Virus record (IMG/VR): IMGVR_UViG_648276656_000008
Length of the DNA stretch: 15,267 bases
From: a virus
Lineage: Duplodnaviria; Heunggongvirae; Uroviricota; Caudoviricetes
Direction: 5' to 3' (one strand)
Positions 5,778 through 15,267 of the stretch are shown here, piece after piece. Position 1 is the stretch's first letter. Each line of letters opens with the position of its first letter. The notes beneath the pieces were generated by a model. It did not search any database. It saw nothing but the letters and a program-made list of their open reading frames with translations, and was not told the origin of the DNA. A program made the translations under genes and the position numbers.

Positions 5778-6197
5778 TTAAGAGGCTTTTTGTTTTTTCT
5801 TTCGTGCTAACTCTTCGTAAATTGCATTGTACTTCTGTTTTTTCTCCTCAAGAGTTTTTAAAAGTTCATCTGTCTCACTGTCAGGGAGCTCGTCCAGAAG
5901 GTCAATGATGATTTTTTGTCTTGGATTTAACTCCTGATAGAAACGTATCTGTCCACTTTCTTCTGTATCCTCTCCCAAAAGATAGGTTGGTGTTGTTCCA
6001 ATGAGTGTTGCTAATTCCCTTAATTTCTCTCGGCGAGGAATTGTTTCACCATTAAACCATTTGCTAACCGCTTTTGGTGTTAATTTCATTCGACGGGCAA
6101 TTTCTGCCTGCCTTCCATGTTGTTCATAACCAGCGTTTTCACAGGCTAGCGCAAGCCTACTGGCGAACTCTTTACGCGCTTTATCTTCATGAACCAT
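5778..6197 (-). CDS. racR: RacR-like prophage repressor (XRE/cI-type helix-turn-helix)
   Basis: 139-aa ORF whose N-terminal segment RQAEIARRMKLTPKAVSKWFNGETIPRREKLRELATLIG looks like an XRE-type HTH. It is divergent from the cro-like ydaS, as expected for an immunity region. My recalled K-12 length (158 aa) does not match; no upstream in-frame start exists here. Confidence 0.75.
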   Translation of the reverse strand: MVHEDKARKEFASRLALACENAGYEQHGRQAEIARRMKLTPKAVSKWFNGETIPRREKLRELATLIGTTPTYLLGEDTEESGQIRFYQELNPRQKIIIDLLDELPDSETDELLKTLEEKKQKYNAIYEELARKKKQKAS

Positions 6198-6276
6198 AAG
6201 TTCAATGATATTCGCTCTTGAATGTACTGTCAGTTCTGTTATAGCATGTACTCAAAGTTCACATTGTGAGGATGAT
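6198..6276. promoter_or_regulatory. Divergent racR/ydaS promoter-operator region
   Basis: 79-bp gap between divergent repressor and cro-like genes. Contains the direct repeat ATGTACT at 6222-6228 and 6246-6252 and the inverted pair TTCAA(6201-6205)/TTGAA(6217-6221). Confidence 0.5.
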
Positions 6277-6531
6277 ATGAACCAGAAAACACTTGAAGAT
6301 GTAATCAAAACTGTTCGCGTTTCTGTTGTGGCCGACGTTTGTGGTGTCAGCCAAAGAGCAATCTACAAATGGATGGATAACGGAAAATTGCCTCGCACAG
6401 AATATACCGGCGAAACAAATTACGCTGAAAAAATCGCTCATGCATCAAACGGATTATTTTCTGCCGATGCAATTTTAACTATTGGCAGAAATAAAACTAC
6501 TACGAAAAAGCTGATGGGAGTTGATTCATGA
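6277..6531 (+). CDS. ydaS: YdaS (Cro-like HTH protein)
   Basis: 84-aa product MNQKTLEDVIKTVRVSVVADVCGVSQRAIYKWMDNGKLPRTEY...; GAGGA lies 5 nt before the ATG. Its stop overlaps the ydaT start (ATGA). Confidence 0.78.
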   Translation: MNQKTLEDVIKTVRVSVVADVCGVSQRAIYKWMDNGKLPRTEYTGETNYAEKIAHASNGLFSADAILTIGRNKTTTKKLMGVDS

Positions 6532-6950
6532 AAATCAAGCATGAGCACATCGAATCAGTGTTGTTAGCCCTGGCAGCCGAAAAAGGGCAGGCGTGGGTCG
6601 CTAACGCAATTACTGAAGAATATCTGCACCAGGGGGGCGGCGAATTGCCCCTGGTACCAGGCAAGGACTGGAACAATCAGCAGAATATCTATCATCGTTG
6701 GTTGAAAGGTGAAACGAATGCGCAAAGGGAAAAAATTCAGAAACTGATCCCTGCGGTTCTGGCAATTCTTCCTCGCGAGCTGCGTCACCGACTCTGCATC
6801 TTCGATACCTTGGAACGCCGTGCATTACTGGCGGCACAGGATGCACTGAGTACGGCAATTGATGCGCATGATGATGCAGTCCAGGCCGTTTACCGTAAAG
6901 CACATTTCAGCGGCGGCGGTTCTCCTAGCGATTCTGTCGTAGTGCATTGA
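6528..6950 (+). CDS. ydaT: YdaT (CII-analog regulator of the Rac immunity region)
   Basis: 140-aa product MKIKHEHIESVLLALAAEKGQAWVANAITEEYLHQGGG...; length and position after ydaS match Rac YdaT. Confidence 0.82.
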   Translation: MKIKHEHIESVLLALAAEKGQAWVANAITEEYLHQGGGELPLVPGKDWNNQQNIYHRWLKGETNAQREKIQKLIPAVLAILPRELRHRLCIFDTLERRALLAAQDALSTAIDAHDDAVQAVYRKAHFSGGGSPSDSVVVH

Positions 6951-6994
6951 TTGAAATTAATCGTACCGAACTGTTTTGTTCGGTATCAGTTAAA

Positions 6995-7437
6995 TGTAAC
7001 GCTGCGAGCGTTACAAGGTGAAAACAAATGGCTTCAAACTGGATAAAGCTCGAAGTTATTACGCCGGATAAGCCGGAAATATTCAGGCTTGCTGAGATTC
7101 TGAATATTGATCCAGATGCCGCATTAGGGAAAGTCATTCGCTTCTGGGCATGGGCGGATCAACAAATGATAGACGGTAACGCAGAGTGTAACGCTCGAGG
7201 CGTTACAAAAAGTGCAATAGACCGTATCACTTTTATGGCTGGTTTTGCTGATGCGTTAATTCAGGTTGGATGGCTGGTCGAAAGTGATGGAGTGCTTTCA
7301 CTACCAAACTTTGAGCGTCATAACGGAAAAAGCTCGAAAAAACGGGCGGTTACAAACGAGAGAGTTACAAAAATACGCGAACTGAAGCGAAAAGGTAACG
7401 CTGCCAGCGTTACACAAACGGATCAAAAAGCGTTACC
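6995..7437. repeat. Dispersed palindromic iteron-like sites (TGTAACGC-N5-GCGTTACA) upstream of and inside ydaU
   Basis: Near-identical 21-bp palindromes at 6995-7015, 7187-7207 and 7394-7414, plus half-sites GGTAACGC at 7175-7182, GCGTTACC at 7430-7437 and GTTACAAA at 7349-7356 and 7364-7371. Confidence 0.6.
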
Positions 7438-7816
7438 AGAGGAAGAGGAAGAGGAAGATATAAATACTGATCTCCCCCTAAATCCCCCTCGGCAAAAACG
7501 AGCGTCTAAACAATTCGAGCCGGAGGCCATTGCTCTGCCCGACTGGTTGCCAGAAACACTCTGGAATGAGTGGGTCCAGTTCAGGCAGGCATTGCGAAAA
7601 CCGATTCGAACGGAGCAGGGCGCTAACGGGGCGATACGGGAACTGGAAAAATTCCGCCAGCAGGGTTTTACCCCTGAGCAGGTGATTCGACACAGCATCG
7701 CCAATGAATACCAGGGCTTGTTCGCGCCGAAAAGTGTTCGGCCTGAGACGTTGCTCCGACAGGTTAACACTGTCTCGTTTCCGGACAGTGCGATCCCGCC
7801 AGGCTTCAGGGGGTAA
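7028..7816 (+). CDS. ydaU: YdaU-like replication initiation protein (lambda O analog)
   Basis: 262-aa ORF just upstream of the DnaC-like ydaV; contains an acidic EEEEEED linker and the iteron-like palindromes. Start is the first ATG after an in-frame stop at 7019-7021. Confidence 0.75.
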   Translation: MASNWIKLEVITPDKPEIFRLAEILNIDPDAALGKVIRFWAWADQQMIDGNAECNARGVTKSAIDRITFMAGFADALIQVGWLVESDGVLSLPNFERHNGKSSKKRAVTNERVTKIRELKRKGNAASVTQTDQKALPEEEEEEDINTDLPLNPPRQKRASKQFEPEAIALPDWLPETLWNEWVQFRQALRKPIRTEQGANGAIRELEKFRQQGFTPEQVIRHSIANEYQGLFAPKSVRPETLLRQVNTVSFPDSAIPPGFRG

Positions 7817-7822
7817 CTGACC

Positions 7823-8569
7823 ATGAAAAATATTGCGACAGGCGGCGTTCTGGAACGTATCCGCAGACTGGCCCCGCCACATGTAACCGCGCCATTCAGG
7901 ACGGTGGCGGAGTGGCGCGAGTGGCAACTTGCAGAAGGCCAGAAACGTTGCGAGGAGATCAATCGCCAGAATCGTCAGTTGCGGGTGGAAAAAATTCTGA
8001 ATCGCTCCGGCATCCAGCCGTTGCACCGCAAATGCTCGTTTTCGAATTACCAGGTGCAGAACGACGGCCAGCGATACGCGTTGAGCCAGGCGAAATCCAT
8101 CGCAGATGAACTGATGGTCGGGTGTACAAATTTTGCGTTTAGCGGAAAACCTGGTACCGGAAAAAACCATCTGGCGGCGGCTATCGGGAATCGCCTGCTG
8201 AAAAACGGTCAGACAGTGATTGTGGTTACCGTGGCTGATGTTATGAGTGCTCTACACGCCAGCTATGACGACGGGCAATCAGGCGAAAAATTTTTGCGGG
8301 AACTGTGCGAAGTGGATCTGCTGGTTCTTGATGAAATTGGCATTCAGCGCGAGACAAAAAACGAGCAGGTGGTACTGCACCAGATTGTTGATCGCCGGAC
8401 AGCGTCGATCCGCAGCGTGGGGATGCTGACAAACCTGAACTATGAGGCCATGAAAACATTGCTCGGCGAGAGGATTATGGATCGGATGACCATGAACGGC
8501 GGGCGATGGGTGAATTTTAACTGGGAGAGCTGGCGCCCGAATGTTGGTCAGCCAGGAATTGAGAAGTAA
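7823..8569 (+). CDS. ydaV: YdaV, DnaC-like helicase loader (AAA+ ATPase; lambda P analog)
   Basis: 248 aa with Walker A GKPGTGKNHLAAAIG and Walker B LLVLDEIG. Confidence 0.88.
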   Translation: MKNIATGGVLERIRRLAPPHVTAPFRTVAEWREWQLAEGQKRCEEINRQNRQLRVEKILNRSGIQPLHRKCSFSNYQVQNDGQRYALSQAKSIADELMVGCTNFAFSGKPGTGKNHLAAAIGNRLLKNGQTVIVVTVADVMSALHASYDDGQSGEKFLRELCEVDLLVLDEIGIQRETKNEQVVLHQIVDRRTASIRSVGMLTNLNYEAMKTLLGERIMDRMTMNGGRWVNFNWESWRPNVGQPGIEK

Positions 8570-8591
8570 TTTTTACCGGGAGGAAATTTTA

Positions 8592-9317
8592 ATGGAGACC
8601 GTTTTTGACGCACTGAAAGCAATGGGAAAAGCCTCTTCCCAGGAAGTGGCAGCACGTCTGGGAATGACCCGGGATGAGGCGATTAACGAGCTGTGGAAAC
8701 TGAAGCGTCGTGGGGAAGCTGATAACAAGGGCCCGATGTGGTGGTTGACTCAAACCGACGAAAACGCATCTGTAGCACAGGCTTCTAAAGTGACAGCGCA
8801 AATGCTGATCGAGGCGATTGAACAGCATGGCCCTAAAGCGGCTGATGAACTTGCACTGATATTCAGAATTACTTCCCGCAGGGTGAACTCATCGCTGGCT
8901 ATGGCCATCAGCAAAGGTCGTCTGATTCGCGTAAATCAGAACGGTAAATTTCGTTACTGCCTGCCGGACGGTAATTTACCAGCAGAGCCGAAAGTTGTAT
9001 CGGTAGTGAAAACACCTGGTAAAGGCTTTCCTCAGCCAGCCGGTGTTGCGTTACCAGTACAGGAAGCGGCAACACAGGAAGAAATTAAAACAGATACTGT
9101 GGGGGACATTGTGCAGTCACTACCATCGTTCACTGAAACGCGAGCCAATGACCTGATTATACCATCGCTGCAAATGGCAAACCGCGAACTGCGCCGGGCG
9201 AAAAGTTATGTCCAGAAGTGGGAGCGAGTCTGCGCCGCGCTGCGTGAGCTGAACAAGCACCAGGATATTGTCCGTCAGATTGTCGATTCCTCCAGTCGTA
9301 TTGTGTCGGAAAAGTGA
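8592..9317 (+). CDS. ydaW: YdaW-like prophage protein, full length (241 aa)
   Basis: Start METVFDALK... is preceded by GGGAGG; the track ORF begins 17 codons upstream without a Shine-Dalgarno. Named by position after ydaV; I recall the K-12 copy as truncated. Confidence 0.55.
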   Translation: METVFDALKAMGKASSQEVAARLGMTRDEAINELWKLKRRGEADNKGPMWWLTQTDENASVAQASKVTAQMLIEAIEQHGPKAADELALIFRITSRRVNSSLAMAISKGRLIRVNQNGKFRYCLPDGNLPAEPKVVSVVKTPGKGFPQPAGVALPVQEAATQEEIKTDTVGDIVQSLPSFTETRANDLIIPSLQMANRELRRAKSYVQKWERVCAALRELNKHQDIVRQIVDSSSRIVSEK

Positions 9318-10435: not shown

Positions 10436-11104
10436 ATGACAGTTGCTGATTTCAAACGTCCTAAGTTGGAGCTCCCAAACGGGGCAAACAAACTACTATT
10501 ACACTCTTGTTGTGCACCATGTTCCGGTGAAGTGATGGAGGCTCTTCAGGCCTCAGGAATCGACTACACCATCTTCTTCTATAATCCGAACATTCATCCT
10601 CAGAAAGAGTATTTGATTCGTAAGAATGAGAATATTCGATATGCTGAACAACATGGTGTACCGTTTATCGATGCTGATTACGACACTGACAACTGGTTTG
10701 AGCGAGCCAAAGGAATGGAATGGGAGCCCGAACGTGGGAGGCGTTGTACTATGTGTTTTGACATGCGTTTTGAACGGACGGCGCTGTACGCCGCTGAAAA
10801 TGGTTTCAGTGTGATCAGCAGTTCACTGGGCATTTCTCGCTGGAAAAATATGCAGCAGGTTAACGACAGCGGACGGCGAGCTGTCGCACATTATCCGGGC
10901 ATGGTGTACTGGGATTATAACTGGCGCAAGCAGGGAGGCTCGTCCCGCATGATTGAAATCAGCAAACGCGAACAATTCTATCAGCAGGAATATTGTGGTT
11001 GCGTGTATTCACTTCGCGATACCAATTTACACCGCAAATCCCAGGGACGCCCTCTTATCAAAATTGGTCAACTCCACTACGGTAAAGAAGAAGGGCAGGA
11101 ATGA
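10436..11104 (+). CDS. queH: QueH-like epoxyqueuosine reductase (DUF208 family)
   Basis: 222-aa product with the N-terminal [11 protein letters not shown] motif, a central RCTMCF and a C-terminal YCGCVYS cysteine cluster, the pattern I associate with DUF208/QueH. No clear Shine-Dalgarno before ATG 10436. Confidence 0.65.
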
Positions 11105-14705: not shown

Positions 14706-14781
<76 letters not shown>

Positions 14782-14784
14782 TAT

Positions 14785-14859
<75 letters not shown>

Positions 14860-15226: not shown

Positions 15227-15266
15227 CCCCCCCTCTTGCGGGGGTTTTTTTTTTTTTTTTTTTTTT
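15227..15266 (+). terminator. Strong intrinsic terminator with an unusually long T tract
   Basis: C-run 15227-15233, loop TCTTG, G-run 15239-15244, then 22 consecutive T (15245-15266). The window ends one base later. Confidence 0.6.
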
Positions 15267-15267
15267 C

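Follow-up and report, generated by a model that had tools for sequence, protein, structure and literature searches.

The stretch of DNA considered here (the window: 15,267 nucleotides of a tailed virus of the Caudoviricetes, IMG/VR record IMGVR_UViG_648276656_000008) is a Rac-like Escherichia coli prophage, and between positions 6995 and 7437 it carries three 21-bp palindromes accompanied by single half-sites, in and just upstream of a gene for a replication initiator. We argue that these palindromes and half-sites are probably the sites at which the initiator's own N-terminal, putatively winged-helix-like domain binds, and that they form a lambda-style origin of replication internal to the initiator gene. 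An origin or set of initiator sites was among the readings offered by an initial annotation of this DNA, and comparative evidence supports it well: the sites lie in the initiator gene, their DNA is conserved across phyla, they change with the N-domain, and the downstream array adjoins a polypurine and AT-rich stretch. The features on which the argument turns are the following.

6995-7015, no strand: palindrome P1, TGTAACGC-TGCGA-GCGTTACA, an exact match to TGTAACGC-N5-GCGTTACA.
7028-7816, plus strand: replication initiator gene, 262 residues, with the N-domain at about residues 5-95 (putatively winged-helix-like), a disordered linker at 125-150 and a C-domain shared with YdaU.
7175-7207, no strand: cluster A, the leftward half-site GGTAACGC at 7175-7182 plus P2, with a half-site interval of 12-13 bp.
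7187-7207, no strand: palindrome P2, an exact match to TGTAACGC-N5-GCGTTACA.
7346-7354 (GCGGTTACA) and 7362-7369 (GAGTTACA), no strand: weak rightward half-sites, doubtful members.
7394-7414, no strand: palindrome P3, one mismatch to TGTAACGC-N5-GCGTTACA, left arm GGTAACGC.
7394-7437, no strand: cluster B, the proposed origin core, P3 plus the rightward half-site GCGTTACC at 7430-7437.
7438-7458, plus strand: polypurine tract AGAGGAAGAGGAAGAGGAAGA, directly after the last half-site, a proposed unwinding or single-strand contact element.
7455-7484, no strand: least stable 30-bp duplex of 6900-7930 by nearest-neighbour free energy, beginning AAGATATAAATACTGATC.

All three palindromes stand where they were first reported, the third with its one mismatch, and no further match occurs in all 15,267 bases even when up to three mismatches are permitted; the enrichment that a motif count had been proposed to confirm is therefore seen, within this window only. 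Shuffled sequence yields a mean of 0.06 palindrome matches, and none of 200 shuffles attains three copies. The exact 7-mers GCGTTAC and GTAACGC are similarly concentrated, with eight of the window's ten copies inside 6995-7437, a segment that makes up 2.9% of the window, which gives a binomial P of about 2e-11. The additional half-sites mentioned in the initial annotation are real: one precedes P2 by 12 bp, one lies 23 bp past the right arm of P3, and the two at 7346-7369 are weaker, fall within a conserved helix-coding stretch (RAVTNERVT, in relatives RALTNRRVA) and are reduced to one in phage 613R10. What has to be given up is the description of the palindromes as dispersed, each of the two intragenic copies being the centre of a half-site array with an interval of 11-13 bp. 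Nor do palindromy and a spacing of some 200 bp, which had been raised as a difficulty for an origin, amount to an objection, because lambda O is dimeric, the lambda iterons themselves possess dyad symmetry, and the palindromes here form the core of tight arrays.

The same sites recur wherever the N-domain is encoded. A tblastn search with this domain matched 61 phage records, of which twelve were fetched, picked by protein similarity alone; nine have GTAACGC-N5-GCGTTAC or close variants at about +148 from the ATG, and most of these also at about +357 to +379, in phages of E. coli, Klebsiella, Xanthomonas, Pseudomonas and Ralstonia and one of unassigned host, at 42-66% protein identity. A genome scan restricted to one genome per species added 75 protein-selected loci (L138-L212), 71 of them usable, from at least five phyla and including Enterobacterales, Pseudomonadales, Burkholderiales, Planctomycetota, Verrucomicrobiota (Akkermansia among them) and others. 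At least three GTAACG/CGTTAC half-sites occur between -100 and +520 in 54 of the 71, against 0-6 and mostly 0-1 in flanks of about 2.8 kb, and a palindrome of the GTAACG class is present in 42 of them. The reverse test, in which IMG/VR was scanned for the bare sequence GTAACGC-N5-GCGTTAC and 80 stretches were fetched, leads back to the protein: 69 encode an N-domain homologue, and all 69 have the palindrome at +139 to +165, at +337 to +441 or at -32/-33, one locus (L023) having an additional distant copy. The other 11 have no detectable homologue, several of these having the palindrome close to where the contig stops. Within viral sequence it is therefore almost diagnostic of the initiator gene.

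Position and internal order are conserved along with the motif. Some 100 homologues, ranging from Enterobacterales to Planctomycetota, have half-site arrays at the same two positions within the gene, the counterpart of cluster A lying at +139 to +172 from the ATG in most of them. In the downstream array, across 80 genes, between one and six leftward half-sites come first and one to four rightward ones after them, at overall intervals of 11-13 or 23-24 bp; measured from start to start, two leftward neighbours are 12 (or 11) bp apart, two rightward ones 11-12 or 23 bp, and the pair that spans the dyad 13 bp. The terminal half-site is normally CGTTACC, followed by CAG or CTA. Beyond this point the polypurine tract begins. 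A purine run of at least 10 starts no more than 3 nt past the last half-site in 52 of the 80 genes, and a run of at least 14, mostly (GAGAA)n, is found at about +336 to +455 in 44 of the 71 protein-selected loci. The repeated unit is (GAGAA)n in most lineages and (GAGGAA)n in enterics, and the tract is nearly identical in prophages of Planctomycetota, Verrucomicrobiota (Akkermansia) and other distant phyla; in the window it is one of only three purine or pyrimidine runs of at least 15. The conserved feature beside the arrays is a polypurine repeat rather than plain AT richness. Among close relatives the tract varies, strain w264 (L016) having one additional GAGGAA unit and phage 613R10 a G-to-A change inside it. 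To the right of the AT-rich stretch lies CCCCC-TAAAT-CCCCC (7474-7488); paired C-runs, often followed by a G-run, recur at this place in many relatives and in the ydaU of K-12-type Rac prophages; all these runs code for P-P-x-P-P-like peptides, and they could be an origin boundary element or merely a conserved peptide.

Repeats inside a gene may also be the by-product of a peptide repeat, here G-N-A-x-x-V-T, given that P2 and P3 share a reading frame and each encodes (C/G)NAxxVT and that DGNAxxVT is conserved in the initiator family. The codon and frame data already contradict this. In protein-selected genes with the peptide G-N-x(3-4)-V-T/S, a set defined on the peptide and not on the DNA motif, valine is encoded by GTT in 38 of 38 cases, against 24% elsewhere in the same genes (p = 2e-21), glycine by GGT in 32 of 38, against 16% elsewhere (p = 1e-17), and asparagine by AAC in 38 of 38, so that the comparison of synonymous sites across homologues suggested in the initial annotation finds the codons fixed at the motif. 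Arginine in the charged linker of high-GC genes is likewise AGA or AGG at 48 of 48 positions, compared with 50 of 400 elsewhere (p = 2e-37). One and the same half-site is translated in two or three reading frames, into VT or into ALP depending on the frame, and it is found outside coding DNA too, in P1; where the motif differs the peptide changes with it, for example to GHA for GTCACG. The coded residues are moreover of low confidence in an AlphaFold2 (AF2) model, as judged by the predicted local distance difference test (pLDDT): cluster A codes for residues 50-60, with pLDDT below 50 for 54-56 and a mean of 59 over the 51-60 block, at most 59 being the figure for that segment, and cluster B with the polypurine tract codes for residues 123-144, between the N- and C-domains, within a linker (125-150) whose pLDDT is below 50. 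Since these segments are modelled as poorly ordered or disordered, the DNA signals would seem to be placed where the protein tolerates them. Finally, among ten distinct close relatives variation touches 1 of the 64 positions inside half-sites, compared with 60 of the 497 elsewhere (p = 0.009), and the spacers of all three palindromes do vary. Codon choice, arginine codons, reading frames, protein structure and variation among close relatives together indicate that the constraint is on the DNA and not on the protein. A related proposal, that a host transcription factor binds the repeats, runs into the finding that motif classes differ within one host genus and are yet shared across phyla, and for the two proposals taken together we see very little chance.

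The distribution of these classes also bears on what does bind the sites. Three of the twelve phage homologues have palindromes of different sequence at the corresponding places, namely a Raharianne class (GTAGACG-N6-CGTCTAC), an epsilon15 class (GTCCGC-N7-GCGGAC, with eight GCGGAC copies) and a Vibrio phage class (TGTCAC-N9-GTGACA), and the genome loci add GTCACG, GCGCAA, CCGGAC and GTTACG in the same layout. Within one genome all half-site copies switch class together. One host genus may harbour different classes, as in Ralstonia (YL1 and Raharianne) and Pseudomonas (VW-6S and L202), and a single class spans phyla. The GTAACG class is paired with many of 26 unrelated clusters of C-terminal regions, and the same C-domain occurs, in K-12-type ydaU, with an unrelated N-domain and unrelated repeats; the motif class follows the N-domain. 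Neighbouring genes vary too, with ydaT, a KilAC antirepressor, a cytosine methylase or hypothetical genes upstream and DnaC-like, P-like or DnaB-like genes, RuvC or none of these downstream. Taken from sequence comparison, then, the N-domain encoded around the sites is their sole constant partner. The concerted switching of copies also tells against the proposal that the palindromes act as hairpins in mRNA or single-stranded DNA, affecting translation, RNA stability or termination, because hairpins need no shared sequence and no joint change of class. It is true that two strong hairpins are predicted for the intergenic RNA after ydaT (-28.2 kcal/mol, z = -4.3) and that P3 is terminator-like on the minus strand. 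Any palindrome folds, however; many of the half-sites are unpaired and stand in same-direction arrays 11-12 bp apart, and the sequence itself is kept across phyla, beyond what pairing would ask, which leaves hairpins a highly improbable explanation.

The gene that houses the sites is a mosaic. Its ATG at 7028 is backed by a conserved N-terminus, MA(S/G)xWIK, and the whole protein (residues 1-262) matches all 277 positions of the profile PHROG 2509, 'replication initiation protein', at E = 3e-89; with phrog_678, 'replication initiation O-like', the match is confined to residues 85-237 and does not take in the N-domain. Pfam has no family for it at E <=0.01, DUF1376 included, and across Pfam and NCBIfam the sole exception is a sub-threshold match to a DnaT tail. 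A Foldseek search against the PDB returned no match at E <=0.001, and a profile search of PDB sequences nothing relevant. The AF2 model (mean pLDDT 74) has a compact N-domain with helices at 16-25, 29-48, 61-68 and 73-80 and a hairpin at 84-91. In RefSeq the window gene is a 'hypothetical protein' and its counterpart in E. coli SE11 a 'YdaU family protein'. BLASTP against SE11 YdaU (K-12 type, 285 residues) aligns just 124 residues of the protein, 139-262, with 78% identity, and finds no relation for the first 138. The label ydaU given in the initial annotation is accordingly half right, because the gene is a mosaic: it holds for the C-terminal part, with ydaV next, and fails for the N-terminal part, which is unrelated and has no DUF1376. 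The DNA comparison delimits a cassette.

6949-7454, plus strand: cassette differing from K-12-type Rac, by blastn against E. coli SE11 (L002).

Blastn against SE11 finds 6100-6948 to be 97.8% identical and 7455-8700 to be 90.2% identical with no match between, and since K-12-type DNA matches only up to 6948 and again from 7455, the intervening segment is a swapped cassette. It contains the intergenic region with P1, the part coding for the N-domain, every half-site array and the greater part of the polypurine tract. In SE11 the K-12-type ydaU has repeats of its own, (A/G)ATGTTCAAACA, in four or five direct copies plus inverted ones (L002:2316-2432), at the equivalent place, where the two domains meet and just ahead of an AT-rich stretch. 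A third allele, of CP-933P type (E. coli O157:H7, L017), codes for a protein of 321 residues annotated as helix-turn-helix, between ydaT and a ydaV-like gene, and contains an intragenic 33-nt imperfect inverted repeat of TTGACCCGTCAAAT-like units (L017:1321-1387).

As an equal alternative the initial annotation had offered binding of the palindromes by a dimeric regulator such as YdaT, for autoregulation or DNA looping. YdaT is CII-like, its gene is indeed adjacent on the upstream side, and YdaT is known to bind inverted repeats as a tetramer (PMC11879457). Its footprinted box, however, is (A/T)TGATT-N6-AATCAA (PMC11879457, PMC9986795), unlike GTAACGC-N5-GCGTTAC, and the window contains a perfect copy of it elsewhere.

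6521-6538, no strand: YdaT box TTGATT-CATGAA-AATCAA, an exact match with the ydaT start codon (6528) in its spacer, outside the origin.

This box has the same arrangement and context as the footprinted site of K-12 Rac (PMC11879457). A weaker copy with two mismatches, not above chance, overlaps the ydaT stop at 6947-6964. The operators of YdaT in Rac and CP-933P resemble the present sites in being early-region inverted repeats for a helix-turn-helix protein that forms dimers or tetramers, and differ in sequence and spacing. In addition, the arrays are present in all twelve annotated phage loci and in none of these is any gene annotated as ydaT (VW-6S does have a 'regulatory protein CII' gene upstream, which was not compared with YdaT), and the K-12-type ydaT region, so nearly identical up to 6948, is without these palindromes. 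Because the box differs, the real one lies at 6521-6538 and the twelve loci annotate no ydaT, we treat YdaT as excluded, and the odds left to it are minimal.

P1 calls for separate treatment. It stops 12 nt short of the ATG, adjoins the Shine-Dalgarno sequence AAGGTG and is kept in all close relatives, in which the spacer alone varies. Palindromes or half-site arrays no more than 60 bp from the ATG are found upstream in Enterobacterales homologues (L138-L142, L145 and L147; prophages of Serratia, Winslowiella and Pantoea) and in a single lineage from IMG/VR (L028), some of them with two leftward half-sites and one rightward, and in most non-enteric lineages there is no upstream counterpart. 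P1 is probably an autoregulatory or an auxiliary initiator site, and this is the least secure part of the account. The suggestion of autoregulation made in the initial annotation is thus reasonable for the upstream site only, with the initiator, not YdaT, as the agent. Most likely, initiator bound at P1 would stop read-through from the upstream early promoter and in this way hold down the expression of both itself and ydaV; alternatively, P1 could be a third anchor of the nucleoprotein complex. Between ydaT and the initiator gene there is also a hairpin, TACCGAAC-N6-GTTCGGTA at 6964-6985, which is disrupted in strain w264 and which on the minus strand has a terminator-like score and a tail CGATTAATTT; its position recalls the antisense oop RNA of lambda, which lies between cII and O.

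A rival reading has all the sites bind the initiator only as autoregulatory operators or as roadblocks to transcription, keeping down expression of the initiator and ydaV, with the origin elsewhere in the prophage. P1 sits just upstream of the ribosome-binding site, bound intragenic sites would hinder transcription from the upstream early promoter, iteron plasmids have Rep proteins that use inverted repeats for self-repression, and the AT-rich stretch here is weak. Set against this, the array ends at an invariant polypurine or AT-rich element in 52 of 80 genes, with the tract constrained as DNA, and such an unwinding element counts against operators alone because repressor sites need none and origins do. 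The position at the inter-domain linker parallels that in lambda, and no other candidate origin came from repeat searches, which covered the initiator regions only and not the rest of the window, or from a scan of the whole window for DnaA boxes, which found none with up to one mismatch. We consider a purely regulatory role unlikely on this balance.

On the preferred reading, that of a gene-internal origin, replication might start as follows. Dimers of the initiator would bind the palindromes, with more subunits on the flanking half-sites one helical turn apart. The array at 7394-7437 would be the origin core, ending as it does at the polypurine tract and the least stable DNA. If lambda and iteron plasmids are a guide, the bound array would then open the stretch 7438-7484, and the C-domain shared with YdaU would recruit YdaV, a DnaC-like loader, together with the host helicase. 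The array at 7175-7207, which family members keep some 190-260 bp upstream of the core, may form a second part of the complex through looping or wrapping, or act as an enhancer, as the same two precedents suggest.

Several observations weigh against this account or limit it. A literature search found no experimental binding or replication data for the initiator family. The unstable stretch is short, and its free energy of -33.6, against a window mean of -39.7 and a standard deviation of 3.7, lies only about 1.6 standard deviations out. The polypurine tract also codes for the charged linker, so its conservation may be partly at the protein level. The distance from cluster A to cluster B ranges over 189-305 bp (median about 212) with no fixed helical phase, and a rigid or phased loop is therefore not favoured. 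No sigma-70-like promoter lies near P1, which makes a regulatory role for that site conjecture. The sequences compared share ancestry, and the Fisher P values given above, because they overstate independence, are indicative.

Iteron-plasmid initiators, to which the arrangement bears a likeness, use the same half-site in inverted repeats and in arrays: pPS10 RepA, F RepE and pSC101 RepA are winged-helix initiators that read one half-site in two arrangements, and in these plasmids inverted repeats ahead of the gene serve autorepression by the dimer, and arrays beside an AT-rich region serve initiation. Among phages the closest parallel drawn is with lambda and the Stx phages. The middle of the lambda gene O holds iterons and an AT-rich tract, O dimers bind there, and the gene after O encodes the loader (PMC7466680). 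If the present reading holds, the two systems share the place inside the initiator gene, at the segment linking the DNA-binding and partner-binding domains, several initiator sites, adjoined in the window by a candidate for an easily opened stretch, a dimeric initiator, a helicase-loader gene next in order, and the exchange of binding domain and sites together between phages (PMC7466680). The differences are considerable: the window initiator is not a homologue of lambda O (no Pfam match, and phrog_678 over residues 85-237 only), its arrays run <- <- -> -> at 11-13 bp whereas the iterons of lambda number four to six and measure 19 bp, some 200 bp upstream there is another conserved array, with a pre-gene site besides in enterics, and on the presumed unwinding side a short AT stretch comes after a polypurine repeat that is conserved. 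The other comparison is with the Rac prophage of K-12, reported to have an active origin, oriJ (PMC3945230). Its ydaU-ydaV genes occupy the same place after racR-ydaS-ydaT, with a C-domain 78% identical and the same ydaV, and differ in an unrelated N-domain (of DUF1376 type in K-12, by annotation) and in the repeats. The literature search found no published definition of oriJ at the sequence level, and the initiator allele of the window is not the K-12 one; the ATGTTCAAACA repeat region of SE11 (L002:2316-2432) is a candidate for it.

An iteron origin inside an initiator gene is of a known kind, and the family and layout appear undescribed in the searchable literature, our search having found no description of this origin. 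A bolder idea, which we hold tentatively and think more doubtful than not, is that this is a widespread origin design of its own, with a half-site array that switches polarity, an invariant polypurine repeat no more than 3 nt away and a second array some 200 bp off. The repeat would then be more than a run of codons for a charged linker: a specific unwinding or single-strand contact element engaged by the conserved part of the initiator, like the DnaA-trios beside DnaA boxes in the origins of bacterial chromosomes, and would have stayed constant through at least seven switches of half-site specificity.

The initiator gene is followed by the gene for a presumed loader.

7823-8569, plus strand: ydaV, annotated as such, a DnaC/IstB-like AAA+ protein (Pfam IstB_IS21, E = 1.4e-19; Bac_DnaA, E = 1.7e-8).

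YdaV is presumed to be the helicase loader recruited through the initiator's C-domain. Other genes of the window are recT, recE, racC, kilR, sieB, a racR-like repressor, a ydaS-like gene and ydaT (6528-6950). The DNA is 100% identical to that of strain AMSCJX02 across the 2.1 kb compared, and 678 of 5,426 complete E. coli genomes match at least 80% of window positions 6500-8600. Two circular extrachromosomal records deposited as plasmids, of 41 and 52 kb and rich in phage genes, carry an initiator of the family (L213, Pusillimonas sp. T7-7 plasmid NC_015459, and L214, E. coli pE16EC1016-8); these could be phage-plasmids, or else phage genomes caught while replicating, and the presence of the initiator is compatible with autonomous replication, not proof of it. 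An Rfam scan of the window found two tRNAs and nothing else, these being late-region genes at 14706-14778 and 14785-14856, for Thr and Gly according to an identical RefSeq record. A QueH (epoxyqueuosine reductase) gene lies inside the prophage at 10436-11104, and a run of 22 T closes the window at its extreme end (15245-15267).

The analysis provides a testable map of the likely origin and of the recognition sequence of the initiator for one Rac-type prophage replication allele, and the map extends to a large uncharacterised initiator family found in epsilon15-like, Xanthomonas, Pseudomonas and Ralstonia phages and in prophages of Akkermansia and Planctomycetota. It also offers a clean case from nature in which a DNA-binding domain has been swapped along with its sites in a single cassette, and in which overlapping DNA signals have shaped a coding sequence. 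From the half-site class one could predict whether prophages in the same cell are incompatible in replication or activate each other, and the cassette could provide orthogonal pairs of origin and initiator.

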